DNA from: Patescibacteria group bacterium
Lineage (GTDB): Bacteria > Patescibacteriota > Patescibacteriia > JAHIZJ01
Direction of reading: 5' to 3'
Assembly (NCBI GenBank): GCA_028714495.1
Contig: JAQTMH010000001.1
Coordinates: 179,814 to 243,813 of the forward strand
Length of the DNA stretch: 64,000 bases
Translations under genes and position numbers: made by a program
In this document: in pieces, positions 10,689-51,785 of the stretch
Layout of the letters: the number at the start of each line of letters is the position of its first letter
How positions within the stretch are numbered: position 1 is the stretch's first letter
The notes under the pieces: generated by a model
Told to the model about the DNA's origin: nothing
The model's database searches: none
Seen by the model: only the letters and a program-made list of their open reading frames with translations

Positions 10689-10773
10689 CCCTTAACCTCA
10701 TCGGCGCAGGAAGCCCCGAGATCTTAAGACAAAGATATCGGGTTCCCTCTGCCGAGCGTCTCGAGGAAAAATT

Positions 10774-11475
10774 ATGAAAGACCTCTCAAAGCTCGAAGCT
10801 ATCATCGGCTGTACGTTCAAAAATATCAAACTCCTGGAACAAAGCCTAGTTCACCGCTCGTATCTCAACGAGCATCCGGATTTTCCGCTGAAGCACAACG
10901 AGCGGATGGAATTTTTAGGCGACGCCGTACTGGAGTTGGCTGTCACCAGATACCTTTTTCAAAAGTTTCAAGAAAAATCCGAAGGCGAATTGACCAATTG
11001 GCGCGCCAGCCTGGTAAAAAGTGAAACACTGGCTGACACTGCCGAAAGTATCGATCTCAACGATTTTCTGTACCTAAGCCGGGGCGAGGCTAAAGATACC
11101 AATTCAAAAGCGCGGCGCTACATATTGGCCAACGCTCTCGAAGCTCTCATCGGCGCCATTTATCTCGATCAGGGGTTTGAAGCCGCCGAGAAATTCATTG
11201 GCAGCTTCTTGCTTACAAAACTGGACGATATCTTGCAGAATCATCTCTATCTCGATCCGAAGAGCCGCTTCCAGGAAAAAAGCCAGGAGATCGCCGGAAT
11301 CACACCTCACTATAAAGTGCTCTCCGAGTCCGGCCCTGATCACGCCAAACGTTTTAACATCGGAGTATTTCTGGGTGATGACGAGATCGCTGTCGGTGAG
11401 GGCGCCTCAAAACAAGAAGCCGAGGAAAGCGCGGCGCAGCGGGCGCTCAAAGCCAAAGACTGGAATGGCACTTAA
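10774..11475 (+). CDS. rnc: ribonuclease III
   Basis: RNase III signature ERMEFLGDAVLELAV and C-terminal dsRBD (GPDHAKRFNIGV...GASKQEAEESAAQRAL). Confidence 0.9.
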   Translation: MKDLSKLEAIIGCTFKNIKLLEQSLVHRSYLNEHPDFPLKHNERMEFLGDAVLELAVTRYLFQKFQEKSEGELTNWRASLVKSETLADTAESIDLNDFLYLSRGEAKDTNSKARRYILANALEALIGAIYLDQGFEAAEKFIGSFLLTKLDDILQNHLYLDPKSRFQEKSQEIAGITPHYKVLSESGPDHAKRFNIGVFLGDDEIAVGEGASKQEAEESAAQRALKAKDWNGT

Positions 11476-11987: not shown

Positions 11988-12048
11988 ATTCAACTAGCAA
12001 TTAATTATCCAAAAGCTGATTTATTCATGGCTTTTTTTATTTGGATCC

Positions 12049-12146
12049 ATGGAAGAAATTCAGAATTCAGAATTAAGAAGTAATAATTATTGAAGTCCCG
12101 CAACGGGACAACCGACCTTCTTCCTTCTGCATTCTGAATTATAAAT
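12049..12146. repeat. AT-rich palindromic element (gaattcagaatt family), copy A, left flank of pyrF/pyrE cassette
   Basis: gaagaaattcagaattcagaattaagaagtaataattattga-[gtcccgcaacgggac hairpin]-...cttctgcattctgaattataaatt; termini inverted-complementary. Confidence 0.6.
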
Positions 12147-12281
12147 TGTGTTCATTGGTCATACCAAGTTCCGCCCTTGGGGGATATTTGACCCCTTGTT
12201 TTATTTTTGTTAAGCTTTGGCCGATGTTGCACTCGAATGGTCATTGAAATAAAGGCGTCTTCAACAAAAAGGGGGTAGCCA

Positions 12282-13172
12282 ATGGGTTTCAGAGAACGAC
12301 TGGAACAGGCCTGGGCTCTGCAAAACAGTTTGGTCTGCGTCGGGCTGGACACCGATGTCCGGAAAATACCACTTCATCTTCGCGACCGGCCAGAGCATCT
12401 GGCAGTGCGCCGATTCAACGAAGACATTGTCAGGGCCTGCGCGCCATACTGTTCCGTGTTCAAGCTTCAGTTTGCCTTTTATCTCGAGGCTGGTCTGGTC
12501 CAAGTGGTGATCGACACCATCGCTTTCATCCGGCAGCACTACCCCAACCATGTGATCATTCTGGATGCCAAGTGGGGTGATGTGAAAGAAACGGCCAAGG
12601 CCTACCAGCGTTTTGGTAGCGGTCTCCTGAATTACGACGCAGTCACGCTCTGGCCAGGTACTGGTTCAGAATCAATGCGCCCCTTCTTCGATGATCCCGA
12701 GCACGGCGCCATCTTCGTCTGCCGGACTTCCAACCCAGGTAGCCCGGAACTACAGGATGCCCCTGTTTTCATTGGCTATGACGACGGCACCAGGGCCGCG
12801 AAAACCGAACCCTACTGGTTCTGGCAGGGCAAGCAAATTGCCCACTGGAATCAGCATGGCAATGTCGGACTGGTCATGGGCGCCACCTTCCCGGGCGAAC
12901 TCCGGCAGATGCGCGAAGCCGTGGGTGATGATATGTTCTCCCTGAATCCCGGCATTGGCGCACAAACAAAAGAGCAAGGAATCGAAAACCCAATCCAGGC
13001 CGCAGTCGAAGCCGGCCAGGACTCGAGTGGAAAAGGTATGATCATTAATTCCTCGCGCGGCATCATCTTTGCCTCTTCAGGTGAAGACTATGCTGAAGCC
13101 GCAGCTCGGGAAACCGAACGGCTCCGCGATGAGATCAACCGCTTCCGTATCCGACAGGAGGTGACTCGATGA
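12282..13172 (+). CDS. pyrF: orotidine 5'-phosphate decarboxylase, type 2-like
   Basis: LVCVGLDTD and DAKWGDV motifs correspond to OMPdecase LCVGLDP / DAKRGDI; aagggggt RBS; G+C-rich. Confidence 0.7.
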   Translation: MGFRERLEQAWALQNSLVCVGLDTDVRKIPLHLRDRPEHLAVRRFNEDIVRACAPYCSVFKLQFAFYLEAGLVQVVIDTIAFIRQHYPNHVIILDAKWGDVKETAKAYQRFGSGLLNYDAVTLWPGTGSESMRPFFDDPEHGAIFVCRTSNPGSPELQDAPVFIGYDDGTRAAKTEPYWFWQGKQIAHWNQHGNVGLVMGATFPGELRQMREAVGDDMFSLNPGIGAQTKEQGIENPIQAAVEAGQDSSGKGMIINSSRGIIFASSGEDYAEAAARETERLRDEINRFRIRQEVTR

Positions 13173-13894
13173 CCAAAGAACAAGTGCTGGCAATCCACGA
13201 TGTGGCTGGTTTGCGTCAACTCGGTCCTTGCAACTTCATGGATCGGGACATGACCGTCGAGGAGTTCCGGCATATCGCCGAACTCTGCGGCGCGTTCTGG
13301 ATCAGGCCGGATGTCCGAGATCCAAACATTCCACACGCTCTCTTGACCAAAGGTGGGCACAGCGACGGATTCGTGAACACCTTGGTCGTACTGTCCTACA
13401 CCAATCTCTGCCACATCCTAGCTCATCAGCTGGTGAATCGGATTCGCCGTGTCTATGATGGTCCAGTCGGCTGGGTCGTCGGCTCTGACCATGCTGGCGC
13501 CGCTTTTTCGCACAGCGTCGCTTTCATCCTTGGCGCCCGGCACGATTTTACCGAGAAAGGACCAAATGATACCCAGATCTGGAAACGCTTCCAGATCCTA
13601 CCTGGTGAAGTCGTACTCCAGGTCGAAGAACTGATGACCAGTTCCGGCACCCTGATGGCTGTCAGAAACGGCATCCGAGCGGGGAATGTTGAGCCGGTTA
13701 CCTTCGCTCCAGTGGTGGGTGTACTCGTCCACCGCTCTACAGTGTACGAAATCGAAGACGGGCCAGTAATCAGCGCCTTCCACTACGACATGACCAACTG
13801 GACGCAAGAAGAGTGTCATCTCTGCCCGATCGGCTCCGAAGCTCTGCCTCCCAAGGCGATCTGGGAGCAATTCGTTGCCAAGGGGAAGCCTTGA
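13169..13894 (+). CDS. type I phosphoribosyltransferase, orotate PRTase-like
   Basis: PRPP-binding motif VVLQVEELMTSSGTL; start overlaps pyrF stop (ATGA coupling). Confidence 0.6.
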   Translation: MTKEQVLAIHDVAGLRQLGPCNFMDRDMTVEEFRHIAELCGAFWIRPDVRDPNIPHALLTKGGHSDGFVNTLVVLSYTNLCHILAHQLVNRIRRVYDGPVGWVVGSDHAGAAFSHSVAFILGARHDFTEKGPNDTQIWKRFQILPGEVVLQVEELMTSSGTLMAVRNGIRAGNVEPVTFAPVVGVLVHRSTVYEIEDGPVISAFHYDMTNWTQEECHLCPIGSEALPPKAIWEQFVAKGKP

Positions 13895-13919
13895 GCTCTG
13901 TTAACTTCATTAGCCTATA

Positions 13920-13960
13920 GGGACAATTCCTGTCTTTATAGGCTATTTTTTATTTGCCTA
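13920..13960 (+). terminator. putative terminator after PRTase gene
   Basis: agcctataggg...ataggcta hairpin then tttttatttg. Confidence 0.45.
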
Positions 13961-14133
13961 GAGTTAATACAAGTAACGAATAATAGAAAATAATTTGGCA
14001 ATTATATCTTCAAATCCACCGCAAATAACCCGCCGTAAGCCCCAGATATTACCCAGCATGCAATAAGCTAGTTAAAAATGAAAATTGATAATGCTAATTA
14101 AATGCCAACCGGAGGCGGGTATTTGGGCCAACT

Positions 14134-14245
14134 GAAGAAATTCAGAATTCATCCCCGACTAGATCAGGGATCAGAAGTAATAATTATTGAACCCGCCTAT
14201 GGCGGGATACCTTCATTCTTACTTCTGAATTCTGAATTATAAATT
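14134..14245. repeat. AT-rich palindromic element (gaattcagaatt family), copy B, right flank of pyrF/pyrE cassette
   Basis: gaagaaattcagaattcat...gaagtaataattattgaa-[cccgcctatggcggg hairpin]-...acttctgaattctgaattataaattg; shares termini and core with copy A. Confidence 0.6.
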
Positions 14246-14738
14246 GGTACTAGATAAACTCATTTGATCCTAAACAATAAATTTTATTACCTAATCTTAG
14301 CCAAAATACCCTGTTGATAACTTATTGGCTCTAGGCATTGACAATTTGTCCGACATCTTCTATGCTTGGGGGCTTAGAAGACAAAACAAAATCTTTACAA
14401 TATAATATTAATAGTATCCGTGAGGCGATGAACTGCAGCCTGAATCTGGTCGCTTTCCCCCTAGAGTTTATTAAACTTTTGGGGGCGGGCTGCGGGGAGC
14501 TAGTAGCGAAACCGACATGGCGGAGGAAGTCCTTCGATACCAAAAACTGCCGCCGCCTCACGCCCAAGAGGCGTTTTTTGTTGGCCTGACCTTATTACCG
14601 GTTGCCTTTAGTGAAATACCTAAAGACAGCCGGTTTGTAAGGTTACTAAGCTCTTTGACAACACGGTGTAAGCGGAACAAAACGCCGAAATACAGCGCGA
14701 AGTTGTTTTCGGGGTTACCACAAAAAGGAGGACCGGTC

Positions 14739-15452
14739 ATGAAGCGCCTGTTTGTATTCTGTTTGGTGTTGACGTCCGTTCTGCTGGCCACGACGGCGAG
14801 TGGAGCGGATCGAGCCTTGGTTGAACGTACGCTGGTCTGGGTGGAGGGCAATCCCATTCCGCCGGACAGCACGCTCAATTCGTCAGGCTATCAATGGGGT
14901 GTTGCTCAAGACTCCCTGATTACCGTCAACGGATTCGTTGCCCAGGTTGCGCGCAAGCCGCCGGTAAAGGCCAAGGTGTATGCTGACACGCCCTACGGCC
15001 GTATGTGCGAGCGGGCTTTTGCCGCGGCAGTTTCGGCACGGGACCAGGGCAAGAACGATTGGGAAGCCGCTCAGGCTGGCGCGGCGGTCATGGAGAACGA
15101 ACGCAGCTTAGTCCGCTCAGCCAGTGTGATCGAGGGTGGATGGGAAGTCGAGTACACCAACGGCGAATCCGAATCATTCGAGCTGGGTCCGCCCGAGAAC
15201 AGAGGATCGCAAACGCCCCAAGAGAAGGCGGCGTTCTACCAGGAAGTTACCGACCAGGGCAAAATGATTGTGCTCGCATGGAATGGGGAGTGCAGATGGT
15301 TTCTGACACCGGCCAGCAGGGTGCTGTGGAACGAGCAGATTCTACGAGTATGGGACAACGAGCCGAACCCGCCTGGCCCTATGCCGCCACAGTTGGTGAG
15401 CCTGTTCTGTGATCCTACGCCCCTCAACCGCGAGAGCCACAAGGAGGAGTAA
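14739..15452 (+). CDS. secreted hypothetical protein (G+C-rich island)
   Basis: aaaaaggagga RBS; signal peptide MKRLFVFCLVLTSVLLATTASGA; track ORF starts earlier at 14517 but signal peptide and RBS favour 14739. Confidence 0.5.
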   Translation: MKRLFVFCLVLTSVLLATTASGADRALVERTLVWVEGNPIPPDSTLNSSGYQWGVAQDSLITVNGFVAQVARKPPVKAKVYADTPYGRMCERAFAAAVSARDQGKNDWEAAQAGAAVMENERSLVRSASVIEGGWEVEYTNGESESFELGPPENRGSQTPQEKAAFYQEVTDQGKMIVLAWNGECRWFLTPASRVLWNEQILRVWDNEPNPPGPMPPQLVSLFCDPTPLNRESHKEE

Positions 15453-15455
15453 GCC

Positions 15456-18284
15456 ATGAAGATCTCATTGATCTTGCTTGCGCTCCTTCTGATGTTCGGT
15501 TCAGCGGGAGCGACCAACCGCGATCCGGTCGGATCCTCGGCACTCCAGTATCATCCCTACGAATTTGGACTTGGGTGGGACGGACAGGAGTTCATCAATC
15601 TGGCGATTTCACAGGGACGAGACGCCATAGACTTCCATAACACCAGCGGAGGAAGCCAGATCCCGCAATGTGGTCTCGATCTGTTCAAGTGGTACCTAAA
15701 CGGCGGTCAAAGCGGATTCCGCGCGATTATCGAGGTGAGTACTCACGGCAACTCAAACCAGGCGACACATGAGGCCTTCCGCGACTCTACGAACAGAGAA
15801 ACCGCCTGGACATACCACTTACAGAACGGCTGGAGCACGACTGAGATCATCAGAACACAGTCGGTTGACGGCTATGGTATCGGCATCAAGGCGCCGGCCT
15901 TAGCCAGCCTATTCGACGGCGGCCACCAGGAGCTGGTCATCTATCACTCCTGCCATGCCTATGACTGGTTGAACACCGGGTACAACGATGCTCGGTGCGA
16001 GATCGGCTGTGTGGATTCAGACAACTGCCTGGTCAGTTACTTCTTGACACTGTTCAACCGGTTGGATGGACAGGAAGGACTGGAAAAGCGGGCGGTCAAT
16101 CAAGCGCTGTCTGGCTTAACATACCTCGGGTATCAGGGGAATGGCGAGACTGTGCTGGCCGCTTGCGTAACCAATGTCCTTCCGGCAGCCGGAACCGTGC
16201 TCACGGGAAACACTCAAGCAACTGTGTCTTTCGACACCGAGATGGACAATGATTTGTCATTCCGCTGGCCAGTAGTGATCGGAGACAATGCCCTAGTTGA
16301 TAATGTTGTTTGGTATCCGGACTACCTTGAGTTCACGCTGATACCCTATCGCGTCGGGCCAGTGACAGTTGAAATCCAGGCCTTGAGCAAGGGTGTAAAC
16401 GAACTGGATGGAAATCAAGTGCCGGTCGGTACGAACGGACAGGGTCCCAGCGAAGATCACTATGTGTTTTCGCTGACCAGCGCCGTCGATAACCCGAACA
16501 CTGCGGTGAGCTTTGAAGGCGCCGGAGCTTTCTCGGCCGAGGACGGCACCCACGTCTGGTGGGTAACCGATCCTGAGCTGGGTTCGCAACAGTTCGAAGT
16601 GTACGGCGGCGTAAACCGGTCACAACTCCTGGCTTCAGTGCCGGCGAGCGGCGGACCGGACCGGTCGTACTTCTACGAACTGGTCGTGCCGCCAAGCGAG
16701 TCGTATGAGGTGGTTGAGATCGACAATGATCCAACCACTGAATACTCGACCCGGCCGTTCTATCCGAGCGGCCCACCCGCGAACCTGGACCTTCTGCGCT
16801 CCATGAATGCCAAGTACGGCACGTGGACGCCCTGGGTATGGGAGGAGGGCGGACGGGATAACCCCATCTATGAACCGACCAACTTCGTCTACTACTCATC
16901 TCGGTCCGACTTTCTCGATCTCTGCCAGCCGGTCATCGACTGGTGGGAGGGCAAAGGTTTCACGTCGCAGGTAGTGACGGGAACCGAAAACCCCTACGAC
17001 TGCCAAGCGGTAGCAGAAGCTGTGTATAACGCGGCGATTGAGCATGAACTTCCCTGGCTGCCGTTTCTGGTGATCGTGGGCGAGGCCAACCAAGGGTCAG
17101 TCCCGGCTTACAATATAGTCGGGACAATCTACGTGGATGACGAAGACGATCAGTGTTACTGGTCAAGCTGCGCTTCTGATGCCAGCATCGTCGAGTTCGA
17201 TGGAGATAAGATCCCGAACATGCCGTGGAGTAGAGTGCCCGTTCACACGACCACGGAGCTGCAGTATGAAGTTACCTCGACCATGGAGTATTACGGACGG
17301 CTCCGGCCACAATCTCTGAGGGCAGTCATCTTCGACGGCGACCTGAACCCCAGCTGCAATCAGATGATCGAGCCGCGGGCCACGCTGACCATGATCCAAA
17401 CCCAGCTTGAAGCCGCAGGCATATCGACTGTGATGCTGAACGATTCTGACATTGAAGACTGCGGCGACATGGAAACACGGCACGACTGGGCTTGCGCGGA
17501 AATCAACGCCGGCATCACCGAACTGCTAGGCAATGGGTTTGGCACGAGCCGGTCGATTCTGCCAGGCTATTTCCAGGAAAAGATGTTCAATCCGGTCTTT
17601 ACCATGGCGGACCTGCCACGGTTGCAACGGATCGTGGTCGAATTTCCGGGTTGTGGCATGGGTGACATAGACCGGGACAATCCCTCCTATTACCCGTCCA
17701 TACCAAAGATGTATCTGACCGCGAATCCGGCCAACGGGACAACAGCAGTTGCCTGGATATCGCATTCCCGCGGCGGCCTACAATCTCTGCATCTGGCATT
17801 GGCTCGCGCCTATTTCGAGCAACGTGTTCGGTACCTGTATCGAACCGTGCAGGAAAACAACTTCCGGGCAATCCGACAGCTGGGTACGGAAAATCCGGCT
17901 GCTCGTGACTATCTCTTGATGGCCGGCGCCTATGGTTTCCCGGCGCGCATCGTCGAGATGTACGAAGCAGGAGCAACGCCGGAAACGGTTGCGGCCGATA
18001 TTCCGACCGGCTTGAGCATTAGTCCGAATCCGGTAGTCAGCAGCCTCAGCCATCTGTCTTTCGGGATGAAGGGCTATGGCCGCGTCGATCTGAAGCTCTA
18101 TGATATTCAGGGACGCTGTCAGCGGACCCTGGCTGACCGAGTTGTTCTTGAGCCCGGACTACACCGTATCGCGTGGGATGGACGCGACGACGCGGGTCGA
18201 TTGCTGTCAGCTGGCGTATACTACGCCCGGCTGTCGGTCAACCGGCATGATCGCGCGGCGGCGAAATTCGTGCTCGTGCGCTAG
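15456..18284 (+). CDS. large secreted protein with putative His/Cys (CD-clan-like) peptidase region and C-terminal beta-sandwich sorting-type domain (FlgD-Ig / Por_Secre_tail-like)
   Basis: aaggagg RBS; signal peptide MKISLILLALLLMFGSAGA; STHGN...VIYHSCHAYDW; C-terminus ...GRVDLKLYDIQGRCQRTLADRVVLEPGLHRIAWDGRDDAGRLLSAGVYYARL. Confidence 0.55.
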   Translation: MKISLILLALLLMFGSAGATNRDPVGSSALQYHPYEFGLGWDGQEFINLAISQGRDAIDFHNTSGGSQIPQCGLDLFKWYLNGGQSGFRAIIEVSTHGNSNQATHEAFRDSTNRETAWTYHLQNGWSTTEIIRTQSVDGYGIGIKAPALASLFDGGHQELVIYHSCHAYDWLNTGYNDARCEIGCVDSDNCLVSYFLTLFNRLDGQEGLEKRAVNQALSGLTYLGYQGNGETVLAACVTNVLPAAGTVLTGNTQATVSFDTEMDNDLSFRWPVVIGDNALVDNVVWYPDYLEFTLIPYRVGPVTVEIQALSKGVNELDGNQVPVGTNGQGPSEDHYVFSLTSAVDNPNTAVSFEGAGAFSAEDGTHVWWVTDPELGSQQFEVYGGVNRSQLLASVPASGGPDRSYFYELVVPPSESYEVVEIDNDPTTEYSTRPFYPSGPPANLDLLRSMNAKYGTWTPWVWEEGGRDNPIYEPTNFVYYSSRSDFLDLCQPVIDWWEGKGFTSQVVTGTENPYDCQAVAEAVYNAAIEHELPWLPFLVIVGEANQGSVPAYNIVGTIYVDDEDDQCYWSSCASDASIVEFDGDKIPNMPWSRVPVHTTTELQYEVTSTMEYYGRLRPQSLRAVIFDGDLNPSCNQMIEPRATLTMIQTQLEAAGISTVMLNDSDIEDCGDMETRHDWACAEINAGITELLGNGFGTSRSILPGYFQEKMFNPVFTMADLPRLQRIVVEFPGCGMGDIDRDNPSYYPSIPKMYLTANPANGTTAVAWISHSRGGLQSLHLALARAYFEQRVRYLYRTVQENNFRAIRQLGTENPAARDYLLMAGAYGFPARIVEMYEAGATPETVAADIPTGLSISPNPVVSSLSHLSFGMKGYGRVDLKLYDIQGRCQRTLADRVVLEPGLHRIAWDGRDDAGRLLSAGVYYARLSVNRHDRAAAKFVLVR

Positions 18285-18373
18285 TATTGGACCTTCAATC
18301 AGTGCCGTTCTTCGCTTGATGGGAGAACGGCCTTTATCTGAAAGTCTAATAATTATCCAAACTAGGAAAGGGG

Positions 18374-18592
18374 GTGACATACATGAAACGTTTTAATCAC
18401 ATATTACTATGGGGAATAATGATAGTAATAGAAGCGATTGTACTAAGTGTGGTTTTTTTTAGCGTAAAACCGAAACCGGTTGCTGCGCAGGGATCGGTCG
18501 TTGTAATAGACACTTGGGGATGCGCAAAGTGGTGTATGACACAGCCAGATCCTTGGGTTTGTATCGAGCGAAACTGCACAAAAGGGGAATAG
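18374..18592 (+). CDS. small membrane-anchored Cys-containing peptide
   Basis: agggggtga RBS; one TM then CAKWC...C...C. Confidence 0.3.
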   Translation: MTYMKRFNHILLWGIMIVIEAIVLSVVFFSVKPKPVAAQGSVVVIDTWGCAKWCMTQPDPWVCIERNCTKGE

Positions 18593-18802
18593 TAATGAGT
18601 GGGTAGTTAAGCATTTGTCTTAAACACTAGGGGCATGGGAGGGAAGGCAATCTTACACAAAAATATCCATCAACCATAAAAACCGTTCATTATTGGACGG
18701 TTTTTTGGTTGGCAAAGCTCACCTTGATTTATTGCTCAAAAACCATTACAATATCTATTGTGAATCCTGAAGTATTGTTCAAAAAATAGTCTCTGTTTTT
18801 TT

Positions 18803-21478
18803 ATGCATCTCCAGAAAATAGATATCCAGGGCTTTAAATCGTTCGCCAACAAAACCTCGATGGAATTCAATCGCGGAATTGCTGCTATTGTCGGGCCAAA
18901 CGGCTCGGGCAAATCAAACGTGGCCGACGCCATCCGCTGGGTCATGGGCGAGCAAAGTTTGAAGATCCTCCGCGGCAAAAAATCCGAGGATGTCATATTC
19001 TCCGGCTCAGACAAGAAGGCCCGTCTGGGCATGGCCGAAGTCACCCTACATATTAACAATGAGGACGGAGCCATGCCGATTGATTATCCCGAAGTGGCTA
19101 TCACGCGCCGGGTTTATCGGAACGGCGAGGCTGAATATCTTTTGAACAAACAGCGAGCCCGGCTTCAGGATATCATTTTGCTCTTGGCTAAATCTAACTT
19201 CGGCCAGCGGAGTTACTCGGTCATCGGCCAAGGAATGATCGATTCCATTCTGACTTCCAGTCCGCAGGAACGGAAGGATTTTTTTGACGAGGCGGCTGGC
19301 GTCCGACAGTTCCAAATCAAGCGCGAACAGGCCGAACAAAAACTCGAACGAACCAAAGACAATCTGCGGCAAGCCGATCTCCTGATGCAGGAAATCGAGC
19401 CGCGCCTGCGCTCCCTCACCCGCCAGGTTCGCCGCCTGGAGCGCCGGGAAACAATCGAGAGCGAGCTGCGAACCATCCAAAAGGAATACTATTCAAATCT
19501 CTGGAAAGAAATATCTGACGAACTGTCAAAAGTGCAAAATGAACAGTCAACCGCCAACCAAAAACATCAGCAGGCAGCCGCCAGCTTAAAAAAGGTGCAG
19601 CAGGAATTAGAAACGCTGGAAAAGGAAATTAGCCGGGAGGAGACATTTCGCCAACTTCAAAAAGAATACAACCGGATCCTGGACCAAAAAAATTCCCTGC
19701 TTCAAGACCAGGCCGTGCACAAAGCCCGTTGGGAGATCGAAGCGATCCAGGCCGGCGAGGTCAATCGCGTCTGGCTGGAGAAACGCATAGAGACTCTTAA
19801 CCGGCTGGCAAATGAAATTGTTGAGGATTTAAAACCGCTCCAGGCCAGCTTAATCGAAACTCAGAAAACGCTTGACGCAAAAAAGTCAGAGCAGGCAAAA
19901 ATTGTCAGTCAATTCGAGGAAATCGAAAAAAGATTGCTTCTGGCCAAAGAACGTCTGGAAAGCAAAAAGTCTATCGGCATGCCAGAAATCCAGGGACGCC
20001 TAACTGAGATCCAAAATAGCTACATTGAATTTATCGCCCGACTGGACCGTGCGACAACGCCTGAAGACGTGTCGAAGCTTAAACGCGCCGCCCGGGAAAT
20101 CCAGACTAATTTAAATAACTACATCAAAGAGCTCGGACGATCAGCGCCCGGCGCCACGCCGGAAGAGGTTTTAATACTGCAGAGCGAATTAACCAATTTT
20201 CTAAAAAGTAAGGACAGCTTAGTAAATGAAATAAACGAGTTGACTGTCAAACTGCGCACCCTCCAGGAAAAAGGCGGCCTTTTGCAAAACCAGCAAAACG
20301 AGGTTGAGGGCGAACTGAACCACCTGAAAAAAGAGATTGACCAGATTGACCAGCAGTCGAAATTGCCAGCCCAGGCTCGCGAATCCTACGAAAAAGACAG
20401 CGTGGAAATGGACCAACGTCTTCACGCGCTGGATCAGGAATTGAAAGTCGCTCGGGTAAAAATTACCGAATTTAACCAGGAAGAGCAAAAAAAGAAAGAT
20501 CATTTATTCAACCTTCAAAAAAGGTTCCGTGACGAGCAAAACAGCCTCAACGCCGTAACTCAAACACTGAATGAATTGCGCGTCAAACAGGTTAGGCTTG
20601 AAACCCGGCTCGACGATCTGGACCGGGAAATGAAAGAGGAAACGCCCGAGCCGATCCAGCAAGAAATAAAAGCTGATTTTGCCAAACTAATCGGCCAGTC
20701 TTCAAATTCTTTATTGCTAGATAAAATCCATCAACTAAAGCACCAGCTGGAGCTCACCGGAGGAATCGACGAGAACGTGACCGGTGAATATTCGCAAACA
20801 AACGAACGCTATACCTTCCTGAAAACCCAGTCGGATGATTTAAATAAAGCCATAATCTCTCTTGAGCAGGCTATCACCGATCTTGACGAAACCATCAAAC
20901 GCCAATTCGACGAATCGTTTCAAAAAATCAGCAAAGAATTTACAAAATATTTTAAAATGCTTTTCCGCGGCGGCAATGCCAAGCTGATTCTGCAGAAAAC
21001 CGATATTCTGGCCGAGGAAGAAAGCGACGACAATAGTGAAGACGAAGAAACGGAGGAGAAAGAAGAGGCTTCAGAGCCTGAACCGAAAAAAGTTATCGGC
21101 AAGGTTGTCTCAGGCATAGAAATCCAGGCTACTCCGCCGGGTAAAAGGCTCAGCAACGTCAATGTACTTTCCGGCGGTGAAAAAGCCCTCACTTCAATCG
21201 CCCTGATCTGCGCCATCATCGCCCATAATCCTTCGCCTTTCGTCGTTCTGGACGAAGTCGACGCCGCTCTGGATGAATCCAACTCAATCAAATTTTCAAG
21301 CATCCTTGACGAGCTTTCCCACAAAACCCAATTTATCACCATTACCCATAACCGCGCCACTATGTCAAAAGCCAATATCCTCTATGGCGTCACCATGCAG
21401 AGCGATGGGGTGTCAAAACTTCTCTCGGTTAAAATGGAGGAGGCAGAAGAGGTAATCAAACGGCATGGGAATAGGTGA
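18803..21478 (+). CDS. smc: chromosome segregation protein SMC (short form)
   Basis: N-terminal Walker A FKSFANKTSMEFNRGIAAIVGPNGSGKSNVADAIRWVMGEQS; long coiled coil; C-terminal LSGGEKALTSIALICAI...VVLDEVDAALD. Confidence 0.85.
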   Translation: MHLQKIDIQGFKSFANKTSMEFNRGIAAIVGPNGSGKSNVADAIRWVMGEQSLKILRGKKSEDVIFSGSDKKARLGMAEVTLHINNEDGAMPIDYPEVAITRRVYRNGEAEYLLNKQRARLQDIILLLAKSNFGQRSYSVIGQGMIDSILTSSPQERKDFFDEAAGVRQFQIKREQAEQKLERTKDNLRQADLLMQEIEPRLRSLTRQVRRLERRETIESELRTIQKEYYSNLWKEISDELSKVQNEQSTANQKHQQAAASLKKVQQELETLEKEISREETFRQLQKEYNRILDQKNSLLQDQAVHKARWEIEAIQAGEVNRVWLEKRIETLNRLANEIVEDLKPLQASLIETQKTLDAKKSEQAKIVSQFEEIEKRLLLAKERLESKKSIGMPEIQGRLTEIQNSYIEFIARLDRATTPEDVSKLKRAAREIQTNLNNYIKELGRSAPGATPEEVLILQSELTNFLKSKDSLVNEINELTVKLRTLQEKGGLLQNQQNEVEGELNHLKKEIDQIDQQSKLPAQARESYEKDSVEMDQRLHALDQELKVARVKITEFNQEEQKKKDHLFNLQKRFRDEQNSLNAVTQTLNELRVKQVRLETRLDDLDREMKEETPEPIQQEIKADFAKLIGQSSNSLLLDKIHQLKHQLELTGGIDENVTGEYSQTNERYTFLKTQSDDLNKAIISLEQAITDLDETIKRQFDESFQKISKEFTKYFKMLFRGGNAKLILQKTDILAEEESDDNSEDEETEEKEEASEPEPKKVIGKVVSGIEIQATPPGKRLSNVNVLSGGEKALTSIALICAIIAHNPSPFVVLDEVDAALDESNSIKFSSILDELSHKTQFITITHNRATMSKANILYGVTMQSDGVSKLLSVKMEEAEEVIKRHGNR

Positions 21479-21612
21479 CCCATTGACAAGGCAACATCAA
21501 TTGTTTAATATCACTCTAGCCATCAATGTGCTCGATATAGCAATTCAAAATTAAAAACGCAAAATTAAAAACCTTCATTATTGAATTCTAAATTTTTAAT
21601 TTTACATTCATC

Positions 21613-22140: not shown

Positions 22141-22318
22141 TTAGGACTTACGCGTTTGAGACAAGTTCGAGGAAAAATGCGAGGATTTTGCGAGGCGTAG
22201 TCAAACTACGACGAGCAAGGACGCAGCATTTTGACGAAGAAATTGGCCAAAGCCGCTTACTGACCCGGCTTCGCCGGGTCAGTAAGCGGCAAGCGCGTAA
22301 GTCCTAATAATCACGAAG
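22141..22318. mobile_element. MITE-like element with 13-14 bp terminal inverted repeats, copy 1
   Basis: ttaggacttacgcg ... cgcgtaagtcctaa termini; internal hairpins cgtagtcaaactacg and gcttactgacccggcttcgccgggtcagtaagc; second copy at 51253-51425. Confidence 0.6.
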
Positions 22319-25265: not shown

Positions 25266-26770
<1,505 letters not shown>

Positions 26771-28258: not shown

Positions 28259-28299
28259 TGGTGGGCGATCCAGGAGTCGAACCTGGGACCTCGTCATTA
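28259..28299 (-). pseudogene. tRNA 3'-half fragment (Ile-like), CCA encoded, no matching 5' half
   Basis: taatgacgag gtc ccagg ttcgact cctgg atcgccc a cca; closely resembles the 3' half of tRNA-Ile(GAT) at 28396-28472 but with a different acceptor. Confidence 0.45.
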
Positions 28300-28334
28300 C
28301 CCGCCCGACTGCTCCGCACTCGGAGGCGGGCGGG
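28300..28334. repeat. 35-nt palindromic element sharing termini with the tRNA-Pro intervening sequence
   Basis: cccgcccgactgctccgcactcggaggcgggcggg; termini cccgcccg/cgggcggg; same cccgcccgactgc start as the 276-nt insertion; abuts the tRNA 3' half in its anticodon-loop position. Confidence 0.5.
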
Positions 28335-28395
28335 TGACCCCGCACAACTCGCCAGAGCTCGTTTGCGGGGCAGGCGCGCTGAACTCACAGGCGGA

Positions 28396-51252: not shown

Positions 51253-51425
51253 TAGGATAGGACTTACGCGTTTGAGCCAAGTTCAAGGCAAAATGCGAGG
51301 ATTGGGCGAAGCCGTAGTGGAACTACGGTGAGTCCAACCGCAGCATTTTAACGCAGAAATTGGCCAAAGCCGATTGCGGGCGGGCTCTGCCCGCTCGAAA
51401 ATCGGCAAACGCGTAATGTTCTAAA
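51253..51425. mobile_element. MITE-like TIR element, copy 2, inserted between the riboswitch and its gene
   Basis: taggacttacgcgtttgagccaagttcaagg...cgcgtaatgttctaa; collinear with copy 1 at 22141-22318, with different (compensatory) internal hairpins cgtagtggaactacg and gcgggcgggctctgcccgc. Confidence 0.6.
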
Positions 51426-51439
51426 TAAAAATCCCGAAA

Positions 51440-51630
51440 CCTTCGGGATGGGCCATCTTTTCGACCGAAGATTGGCAATATTTAATAGGGTATCCTGACT
51501 TATGGAGGAATTGCTCGTTGCGCCTTCCCACCCAGCCCATCACGATAGGCTGGACAGTGGCTTTTCACAACTTGCTTCTCCACTTACAGTGGCGGGACCG
51601 CGCTGGATTTTCACCAGCTTCCCCTTATAT
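51440..51630 (-). promoter_or_regulatory. cobalamin riboswitch
   Basis: minus-strand reading ggaagctggtgaaaatccagcgcggtcccgccactgtaagtggagaagc...aagtcaggataccc; diagnostic gguGAAAAUCC / CGGUCCCGCCACUGU core and B12-box-like AAGTCAGGA. Confidence 0.75.
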
Positions 51631-51785
51631 GTCTAATTGTTAATAAACTGCGACTTGACCTGTTGTTTTTTAATTCTAGTCTAAGCGTATTATGATGTCA
51701 AATTAGAATTCAAAATTCTAAATGTTAAATCATTGTTTCCGCCTCTCGACCCTGCTCTAGGCGGCTTCCTTCATTTTTAATTCTC

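Follow-up and report, generated by a model that had tools for sequence, protein, structure and literature searches.

The question raised by this locus is how a gene for a large secreted peptidase-like protein, richer in G+C than its surroundings and ending in a domain of the type associated with type IX secretion systems (T9SS), comes to lie in the genome of an ultra-small bacterium of the Patescibacteria. The DNA is a 64-kb window, by which we mean the whole stretch analysed (64,000 nucleotides of contig JAQTMH010000001.1 from a Patescibacteria group bacterium). An earlier note took positions 14300-18300 to be a G+C-rich island coding for two secreted proteins and suggested that it might be foreign, contaminating or chimeric. 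We conclude that the segment is a native, conserved Patescibacteria operon and not a foreign island, a contaminant or a chimera. We also believe it quite likely that the operon has been inherited vertically and that a riboswitch of the cyclic di-GMP (c-di-GMP) class II type controls its three exported proteins, one of which is the peptidase-like protein.

Three genes in a conserved chromosomal slot

The genes form an operon and the operon is conserved. The unit is larger than the earlier note supposed, since it spans a promoter-like site at 14338, a third gene, and a hairpin with a T-run near 18709. The first open reading frame (ORF), ORF-A, lies at 14739-15452 (+) and codes for 237 amino acids (aa); the second, ORF-B, lies at 15456-18284 (+) and codes for 942 aa. 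Ribosome-binding sites (RBSs) of the GGAGG type precede both of them, as had been claimed (aaaGGAGGaccggtcATG for ORF-A, AGGAGGagtaagccATG for ORF-B). The claim of two secreted proteins with signal peptides holds as well, to the extent that both N-termini are hydrophobic and of the signal-peptide type when read by eye only (MKRLFVFCLVLTSVLLATTASGA and MKISLILLALLLMFGSAGA). The longest version of ORF-A would start at 14517. We reject this start because 14739 agrees with an independent gene call, with the RBS and with all homologs. The third gene, at 18383-18592 (+), has its own RBS and codes for 69 aa, hydrophobic at the N-terminus and rich in Cys in the tail. Judging by its sequence the product is a small Cys-rich peptide, either secreted or anchored in the membrane, with a (T/S)WGCxK motif.

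The promoter-like site (14338-14366, +) consists of TTGACA, 17 nucleotides (nt) and TATGCT; it was found by a consensus scan with 10/12 matches and lies upstream of the riboswitch. The terminator scan reports a hairpin with a 10-bp stem and a weak T-run 3' of the ORF-B stop (18304-18331, +), a possible partial terminator or processing site. The probable end of the operon is a further hairpin with a T-run (aaaaccgttcattattggacggttttttgg) at 18679-18709 (+), which was read directly from the sequence and goes unreported by the terminator scan. The riboswitch and its terminator, the apparent translational coupling of ORF-A and ORF-B, and the conserved third gene had all been overlooked.

In related loci a gene of about 230-250 aa lies directly upstream of ORF-B. 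The two frames stand anywhere from a 4-nt overlap to a 10-nt gap apart, which suggests that ORF-A and ORF-B are translationally coupled. Homology of this upstream gene to ORF-A can be seen by alignment in six related loci (16-33% identity), and the relatives are all annotated 'hypothetical protein'. ORF-A has no match in Pfam, NCBIfam, PHROG or PDB, a search with a profile against PDB included. The idea that it is a trans-acting prodomain or inhibitor of the gingipain kind was considered, and nothing was found in support. Directly 3' of ORF-B, eight of the 11 loci carry a small ORF with a hydrophobic N-terminal segment and a [ST]WG..K motif. Its layout is a hydrophobic N-terminus, then [ST]WG(C)xK, then further cysteines. 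No cassette protein has a match in PHROGs.

Does this segment belong to the chromosome in which it was found? A contig of 6,862 bp from the Logan assembly is identical to positions 12093-18954 of the window with 0 mismatches. It crosses both cassette junctions, which the earlier note had wanted checked, and so speaks against a chimeric join. The Logan contig comes from a different assembler, maybe from the same reads. A protein identical to ORF-B has been deposited as 'MAG: C25 family cysteine peptidase [Patescibacteria group bacterium]' on a contig of 343,867 bp (MAG, metagenome-assembled genome). The window is otherwise core genome, with gyrA, rnc, smc, rpsP, trmD, 16S rRNA, tRNAs, PFOR, ftsH, rpsA and RNR. 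Within the window the flanks of the cassette contain no integrase, tRNA or direct repeats, and no relatives of the cassette were found in the viral contigs scanned.

Gene order in other genomes argues for the same conclusion. The chromosomal slot between rnc/DUF456(/pyrF) and SMC/S16 holds the cassette in the window and in three loci from MAGs of other samples, L010, L014 and L015. The order is NusB-rnc-DUF456-pyrF-252aa-ORFA-ORFB-71aa-(M23)-SMC in L014, NusB-rnc-DUF456-...-ORFA-ORFB-72aa-SMC-S16 in L010, and pyrF-216aa-ORFA-ORFB-SMC-S16-KH-TrmD in L015. The neighbours rnc and SMC are 65-69% identical to those of the window, whereas identity falls to 36-42% for ORF-B and to about 33% for ORF-A and the small peptide. 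In a shared slot this difference points to a cassette that is vertically inherited and fast-evolving, as expected of surface proteins. Two other loci, L011 and L017, share a different context (SufBD-(SufC)-Rrf2-TruB-ORFA-ORFB-small peptide), so the cassette occupies at least two distinct conserved slots across lineages.

The named close relatives also point to the Patescibacteria. An exhaustive HMMER search at E<=1e-3 puts 442 representatives in the ORF-B family, of which some 30 are full-length. A profile search by word index was dominated by proteins that share only the C-terminal domain (CTD), and the family count is taken from the exhaustive search of representatives. The nearest representatives with taxonomic names are from the Patescibacteria group or Candidatus Kerfeldbacteria, on contigs of up to 697 kb. 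A scan of genome contigs for the family returned the P0002 contig alone. Its label, 'uncultured Gammaproteobacteria', probably arose from faulty binning, as the contig measures 8.8 kb and has 30% GC.

The argument for an island was made mostly on base composition, and part of it stands. ORF-A and ORF-B have a GC of 0.592 and 0.567, and 0.693 and 0.666 at third codon positions (GC3), which puts them at the top of the 43 ORFs of the window. The mean GC of those ORFs is 0.484 with a standard deviation of 0.040, so the two genes lie about 2-2.7 standard deviations higher. However, the two genes that precede the cassette, pyrF and one of 241 aa, both have a GC of 0.561, and the excess is found again wherever we compared it. 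In all seven loci compared (the window, L002, L010, L011, L012, L013 and L014) ORF-B exceeds the rest of its locus in G+C, with values such as 0.589 vs 0.508, 0.597 vs 0.510 and 0.348 vs 0.298. GC3 is raised too, and the excess holds whatever the background G+C (30-68%). Because it recurs in every locus compared, we regard it as a property of the gene family and not as the mark of an island or a recent import. Amino-acid composition, codon selection or something else may be its cause.

The island was also said to begin right after the second copy of a repeat. This is true as far as it goes. The repeat is a hairpin-forming element of about 110-130 nt, with copy A at 12038-12148 and copy B at 14120-14246; the copies agree at 80% of columns, fold as RNA with z-scores of -3.8 and -4.3, and differ in the apical stem by compensatory changes (GUCCCG...CGGGAC vs CCCGCC...GGCGGG). 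What lies between them is pyrF with the 241-aa gene and not the peptidase genes, and we reject the copies as island boundaries. Neither copy has a match in Rfam. A weaker third match to the repeat core lies at 21582-21596 (-). The 241-aa gene (13169-13894) overlaps the end of pyrF, has no Pfam match and carries a motif resembling those of phosphoribosyltransferases (VVLQVEELMTSSGTL); read by eye, this motif suggests a possible divergent orotate phosphoribosyltransferase. A gene of this type is paired with pyrF in L014 and L015 also. Since other small genes take the place of the pair in L010, it is the pyrF pair that varies between genomes and not the protease cassette.

The idea of a recent foreign island, a contaminant or a chimeric join, in which the protease gene came from a T9SS-bearing bacterium into a host that cannot read its tag, can appeal to the high GC and GC3 of ORF-A and ORF-B, to the AT-rich intergenic DNA and repeat at the left edge, to the T9SS-type CTD and to one distant homolog from the Gemmatimonadota. 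We consider this idea largely refuted, and its remaining chance very slim. Both junctions are crossed by a second assembly, syntenic orthologs are known from at least three Patescibacteria MAGs of other samples, and the named relatives are from Patescibacteria or Kerfeldbacteria. The G+C excess is common to all the family loci compared, with adjoining core genes nearly as G+C-rich. The repeats bracket pyrF and not the cassette, its flanks in the window are free of integrase, tRNA and direct repeats, and the scan of viral contigs found no relatives.

An older transfer is a different matter. The Gemmatimonadota have a full-length but distant member of the ORF-B family, on contigs of up to 279 kb, in a locus without ORF-A and without the riboswitch. 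Because of this one member an ancient transfer to or from the Fibrobacteres-Chlorobi-Bacteroidetes (FCB) group is possible, and it would not be a recent island. The version in which a T9SS-bearing FCB bacterium gave the gene to an ancestor of the Patescibacteria, so that the CTD is now a vestigial or repurposed relic, deserves to be taken seriously, although we would still bet against it. The CTDs of the Por_Secre_tail/FlgD_ig kind across the family, a G+C content persistently above the host background and the fact that the C25 fold is best known from Bacteroidota all speak for it. On the other side, all the closest representatives with taxonomic names are Patescibacteria, and a Gemmatimonadota copy that lacks ORF-A and the riboswitch means that transfer could have run either way. 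It is important to see that this version is about origin; it is compatible with the present-day function that we favour.

A conserved riboswitch fold and the predicted direction of the switch

The leader of the operon contains a c-di-GMP-II riboswitch aptamer (Rfam RF01786) at 14412-14526 (+), with a 32-nt hairpin inserted in the P3 loop. It matches the full model (1-84) at 52.4 bits with E between 1e-8 and 9e-11 (1e-8 over the whole window), and it keeps nearly all of the upper-case Rfam consensus positions. An aptamer stands at the equivalent position, upstream of the ORF-A homolog, in eight of the 11 Patescibacteria-type loci, the window included. The Rfam scores are 65.5 bits for L002 (63.4 for a second copy), 53.5 for L010, 47.3 for L016, 44.9 for L014, 43.0 for L013 and 32.7 for L011. 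L015 scores 44.4 bits with a covariance model built in this analysis, and L016, which the analysis-built model had not seen, scores 63. The distance from the end of the aptamer to the ORF-A start is 142-234 nt in the leaders measured, always on the same strand.

The fold itself is supported by covariation in an alignment of seven sequences. The share of cells that pair is 84%, as against 29-51% in slid controls, and 19 of the 27 pairs have double-sided changes. P2 is 100% and P3 94.6% paired, with changes on both sides in nine of 11 pairs. Among 500 shuffles none reached the covariation score. The outer part of P1 is weak, with 62% of P1 cells paired overall. The pseudoknot UCGCU/AGCGA is 100% paired in the seven sequences, with a swap of U-A for A-U within the set. 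It departs from the Rfam consensus GGCAC/GUGC by two compensatory pairs (G-C to U-A and A-U to G-C). We regard the riboswitch fold as established; c-di-GMP is its predicted ligand, by resemblance to the class. In ultra-small prokaryotes from groundwater, Patescibacteria among them, MAGs are reported to contain genes for diguanylate cyclases (PMC9938205), which makes endogenous c-di-GMP plausible.

Compared with RF01786 at large, the shared features are a full-length P1-P2-P3 with pseudoknot, the core nucleotides, the position in a 5' untranslated region and a platform with an intrinsic terminator. The differences are the two compensatory pseudoknot pairs, a hairpin of 20-45 nt in the P3 loop of most copies, a short P1 (about 3-5 bp) and a predicted polarity that is OFF.

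The polarity is predicted from the expression platform at 14549-14579 (+). The terminator scan places the terminator hairpin at 14554-14573, with the 5' arm CGCCUCAC at 14554-14561 and a U6 tract at 14574-14579. The C-rich arm is the exact complement of the 5' core of the aptamer, GUGAGGCG, at 14420-14427. This is no peculiarity of the window. The terminator 5' arm complements the aptamer core in 9/9 leaders and covaries with it, as in the core/arm pairs GUGAGACU/AGUCUCAC in L002_b, GCGAUGCG/CGCAUCGU in L011 and AAUGAGGCG/CGCCUCAUU in L002_a. The complementarity was proposed before L015 and L016 were seen, and it held in both; in L016 the core/arm duplex is 13 bp long and 0/300 shuffles are as stable. 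A simple finder did not locate the terminator in L011, L014 and L016, where the platform was judged from the leader alignment, the complementarity and the hold-out comparison. The folds with terminator and with antiterminator differ by no more than about 1.6 kcal/mol in the window, and they are within 3.4 kcal/mol of each other in five of the six leaders with a located terminator.

We argue that the riboswitch is probably a transcriptional OFF switch. In the proposed mechanism the core GUGAGGCG would, with no ligand present, pair with CGCCUCAC and form an antiterminator that permits transcription of the operon. With c-di-GMP bound, the core would be held in P1/P2, CGCCUC would pair with GAGGCG, the terminator would form and transcription would stop. 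The reasoning is that the core is part of P1/P2 in the ligand-bound form, so that binding should free CGCCUC for the terminator. The operon would then be expressed at low c-di-GMP.

Several points weigh against this scheme or parts of it, and they should be set out together. The aptamer of the window falls 1.1 bits short of the Rfam gathering score of 53.5. With filters off, no aptamer is found in L012, L017 and L018 (three of the 11 Patescibacteria-type loci) or in the Gemmatimonadota locus; the loci scanned in this way without a match are L012, L017, L018 and L019. Among the genes of the 64-kb window we saw none for GGDEF, EAL or PilZ. Promoter-like sites in the region are no commoner than in shuffles, and the assignment at 14338 is weak and made by position only. 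The antiterminator duplex energies of single leaders are only modestly better than shuffles (1-71 of 300), and L015 prefers the terminator fold by 6.7 kcal/mol. The characterised class II switches of C. difficile are ON switches (PMC11477304). Finally, a TTGACAAC motif 3' of the terminator could be a second promoter or operator that works independently of the riboswitch.

This motif needs some comment. In the window it reads TTTGACAAC (14654-14662, +, in the 5' leader between the terminator and the ORF-A start), where it occurs once, and it has the form YTTGACAA(C/T) in seven leaders (the window, L010, L011, L013, L014, L015 and L016). We rejected the TTGACAAC motif as a sigma-70 promoter because no leader has a conserved -10 box at 16-18 nt when read by eye. 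The motif is -35-like and could be an operator, a second promoter of an unusual type, an RNA motif or a second control point.

One could use these same points to argue that the fold resembles c-di-GMP-II but senses another ligand, or that it is an ON switch or a translational switch. The score slightly under threshold, the altered pseudoknot sequence, the 32-nt insertion in P3 and the ON polarity in C. difficile (PMC11477304) are consistent with that, and riboswitch classes are known to include variants of changed specificity (PMC5473149). We find it unlikely. Nearly all upper-case consensus positions are kept, the pseudoknot changes are compensatory, and the architecture of terminator and antiterminator is consistent over nine leaders. 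We continue to favour a c-di-GMP-sensing OFF switch.

In L002 the second c-di-GMP-II riboswitch (1891-1975, 63.4 bits) precedes a 129-aa response-regulator-like gene (2049-2438), an arrangement also seen in L003 and L004. This riboswitch and gene lie just upstream of the cassette's own riboswitch, with tRNA-Gln and a large serine recombinase downstream. The L002 MAG is labelled Gammaproteobacteria, and the contig is 8.8 kb long at 30% GC.

The domains of ORF-B

ORF-B is, from its sequence motifs and profile matches, a secreted multidomain protein of the clan-CD cysteine-peptidase kind. The AlphaFold model, built on 30 homologs, has a mean pLDDT (predicted local distance difference test) of 86.6 and shows five parts after the signal peptide. 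The conservation counts given below refer to 30 full-length homologs of ORF-B.

Domain 1 (aa ~25-235; 15528-16160, +) has the alpha/beta fold of the caspase-hemoglobinase type. The earlier note had pointed to a His...Cys pair here, and it was right. STHGN contains His97 and SCH contains Cys166 (His97-Gly98 at 15744-15749, Cys166 at 15951-15953). Of the 30 homologs, 24 retain His97, 26 Gly98 and 27 Cys166. In the model His97-Gly98 follows the strand 89-95 and Ser165-Cys166 follows the strand 160-164. The spacing of the pair, 69 residues, is longer than in caspases or gingipains. No Pfam or NCBIfam model matches this domain. The His97/Cys166 dyad is the likely active site, and ORF-B would act as a protease through it. 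Two things count against this assignment. Three to six of the 30 members lack His97 or Cys166, and an alignment of the N-domain to RgpB by hhalign is not significant (E=0.085) and out of register.

Domains 2 and 3 (aa ~238-425; 16167-16730, +) are two beta-sandwiches, resembling immunoglobulin (Ig) or fibronectin type III folds, and are all-beta in a confident part of the model. Domain 4 (aa ~475-835; 16878-17960, +) is a gingipain-like alpha/beta domain of the C25 type, and this is where the peptidase profile matches. A search with peptidase hidden Markov models (HMMs) had been proposed in the earlier note. Peptidase_C25 (PF01364) gives 33.4 bits against a gathering score of 23, on aa 485-790, so the hit exists but falls on the second catalytic-type domain and not on the one with STHGN...SCH. 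The same model matches 16 of the 30 family members, with a best E of 8.8e-26. Foldseek against PDB finds RgpB (1cvr) at E=9.3e-15 with a target-normalised TM (template modelling) score of 0.57, and Kgp (4rbm) at E=5e-12. Sequence searches of PDB with ORF-B, with profiles of two and of 30 sequences and with P0014 found no gingipain and only FlgD/PorU C-terminal matches.

Domain 4 is nevertheless, by alignment, not a canonical His/Cys enzyme. With an RgpB reference sequence verified against PDB 4ief_B, hhalign puts Asn693 (in GNG; 17532-17534) on the catalytic His211 and Cys733 (17652-17654) on Cys244; the pairwise E is only 1.1e-3, but the arrangement of strands in the model is in agreement with it. 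All 30 members have Cys733, and column 693 holds T, M, I, S, F, A or N, with His in 0/30. Since the canonical His is lost and Cys733 is invariant, domain 4 would be either a pseudo-protease module for binding or regulation, or an enzyme with a non-canonical mechanism.

The comparison with the gingipains RgpB and Kgp of Porphyromonas gingivalis (MEROPS C25, clan CD) is instructive in both directions. ORF-B shares the fold in its C-terminal half, the Pfam C25 match, the aligned nucleophile Cys and the order of signal peptide, catalytic region, Ig-like domain and C-terminal beta-sandwich. It differs in having Asn693 in place of the catalytic His, and in the domains that come before: a caspase-fold domain at the N-terminus, which brings a His/Cys pair of its own, and a further two beta-sandwiches. 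It also has no N-terminal prodomain of the gingipain type, it is under riboswitch control and its host belongs to a phylum without a known T9SS. Compared with the clan-CD caspase-hemoglobinase peptidases (CHAT, metacaspases, legumain/asparaginyl endopeptidase, glycosylphosphatidylinositol (GPI) transamidase and separase), domain 1 of ORF-B is fused to a second clan-CD module.

Domain 5 (aa ~853-942; 18012-18281, +) is the C-terminal beta-sandwich of about 90 aa, confidently predicted by AlphaFold, which had been called characteristic of FlgD-Ig-like and T9SS domains. That assignment holds for the family but is marginal for ORF-B. FlgD_ig (PF13860) gives 20.7 bits on the whole protein and 25.2 on the isolated C-terminus against a gathering score of 27, Por_Secre_tail (PF18962) gives 11.7 against 27 and TIGR04183 gives 12.5 against 23, so ORF-B is under every curated cut-off. 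The homolog P0002 reaches 27.0 with Por_Secre_tail, at the cut-off of 27. Across the family FlgD_ig matches 26/30 members and Por_Secre_tail 19/30 at E<=0.01. A profile of the family matches FlgD structures at E=3.7e-8 and the C-terminus of PorU at 4e-5. ORF-B itself carries the pattern VYD.xGRxV...WDGxDxxGxxVxSGVYFxRL...KxVLL. We believe that the CTD is homologous to the Ig-like domain of FlgD and divergent in ORF-B, because 26 of the 30 members match and the family profile matches FlgD. A module of the same kind ends an 845-aa protein encoded just upstream of the cassette in L018 (579-3116; 89.6 bits with the family CTD HMM), so in at least one related contig it is reused on another protein.

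What then is the domain for? Neither an outer membrane nor a T9SS is known from the Patescibacteria. From what is known of the phylum the CTD is therefore most likely a module for surface retention or binding and not a T9SS export signal. The remark that nothing else in the window suggests a T9SS is correct, as no T9SS gene was seen among the ORFs scanned in the 64 kb. ORF-B thus has in common with the type A CTD of T9SS (TIGR04183/PF18962) and with the FlgD Ig-like domain (PF13860) a C-terminal beta-sandwich of about 90 aa and relatives that pass the HMMs. It differs in scoring below every curated cut-off and in having no T9SS gene in view within the window. The T9SS is restricted to the Bacteroidetes/FCB group (PMC5445135, PMC12398890). 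An annotation of 'T9SS sorting domain' in a lineage without a known T9SS is a caution for automated annotation.

It could be argued that ORF-B is mainly a sortase-like transpeptidase or peptide ligase, comparable to PorU of the C25 family and to ligases of the asparaginyl-endopeptidase type, and not mainly a degradative enzyme. Its substrate at the cell surface would then be either the small Cys-rich peptide or its own CTD, to be processed, cyclised or attached there. A small peptide gene does follow ORF-B immediately in 8/11 loci, the peptide ligase OaAEP1 and GPI transamidase are found among the structural neighbours of the N-domain, the family profile matches the PorU C-terminus, and Cys733 is invariant in a gingipain-like domain that has no His. 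We doubt it all the same. The fold neighbours are mostly hydrolases, the motif search finds no peptide in 3/11 loci, and the C-termini of the peptides are not strongly conserved. We prefer to see ORF-B as a peptidase acting through its N-terminal dyad.

What the operon may do, and other features of the window

We propose that the unit at 14338-18709 would work as one operon, with a promoter-like site, a c-di-GMP-II riboswitch with an intrinsic terminator and three co-directional genes for exported proteins. We infer that the cassette proteins are exported by the Sec pathway, ORF-B by means of a Sec-type signal peptide. The closest parallel in regulation is PPEP-1/ZmpI of C. difficile, a secreted protease behind a c-di-GMP OFF riboswitch that frees surface adhesins when c-di-GMP falls (PMC11477304). 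By analogy, our operon would remodel or release surface or attachment proteins at low c-di-GMP. The two systems share a secreted protease gene behind a transcriptional OFF riboswitch that senses c-di-GMP (here predicted). PPEP-1 is a zinc metalloprotease under a class I (GEMM-I) riboswitch in a Firmicute, whereas here a class II aptamer stands before a cysteine-peptidase operon in the Patescibacteria.

A more detailed scenario can be drawn, which we offer as a long shot. In this scenario surface remodelling specific to Patescibacteria would be gated by c-di-GMP, with a dual clan-CD enzyme exported when the messenger is low. The His-less Cys733 domain would be a sortase-like transpeptidase that is independent of T9SS and has its own CTD or the Cys-rich peptide as substrate; the N-terminal domain would cleave surface proteins of the host or of the cell itself. 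The system would control attachment to and detachment from the host in an epibiont.

Parts of this system are of kinds already known. Automated annotation already names ORF-B a C25 peptidase, and neither the class of the riboswitch nor the folds of the protease are new. The cassette of riboswitch, ORF-A, ORF-B and peptide appears to be undescribed, as does the dual clan-CD architecture with a gingipain-like domain that has no catalytic His. The same appears to be true of a natural c-di-GMP-II riboswitch conserved in Patescibacteria; in the literature searched we found no published report of a riboswitch in this group and none of a c-di-GMP riboswitch circuit. According to a recent review, the regulation of the host-associated lifestyle of Patescibacteria and their molecular interaction with hosts are largely unknown (PMC11665869). 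The conserved riboswitch would tie one second messenger to defined exported proteins by means of a 115-nt RNA, one ligand and one terminator. ORF-B represents an uncharacterised family of about 440 representatives that combines a clan-CD module having a full dyad with another that lacks the canonical His. The locus also teaches something about method, since an 'island' called on composition turned out to be a fast-evolving native operon of surface proteins.

Some other features deserve mention. A cobalamin riboswitch (51468-51659, -, 88.5 bits) lies downstream of the ribonucleotide reductase gene and upstream of small ORFs at 51232-50777 and 50764-50183. A direct repeat of about 117 nt occurs at 22142-22258 and 51258-51375, 29 kb apart and with 79-89% identity; one copy follows rpsP, and the second separates the cobalamin riboswitch from the next ORF. 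ARAGORN reports a tRNA-like gene of 96 nt at 28259-28354 (-), within a tRNA cluster, with an undetermined anticodon of four bases (ccga); it may contain an intron or be atypical. Outside the window, L017 has a sub-threshold match to a SAM (S-adenosylmethionine) riboswitch at 10699-10809 (37 bits). The window also contains a complete bacterial 16S rRNA gene at 25266-26770 (+, 1462 bits), which can be used for placement within the Patescibacteria.

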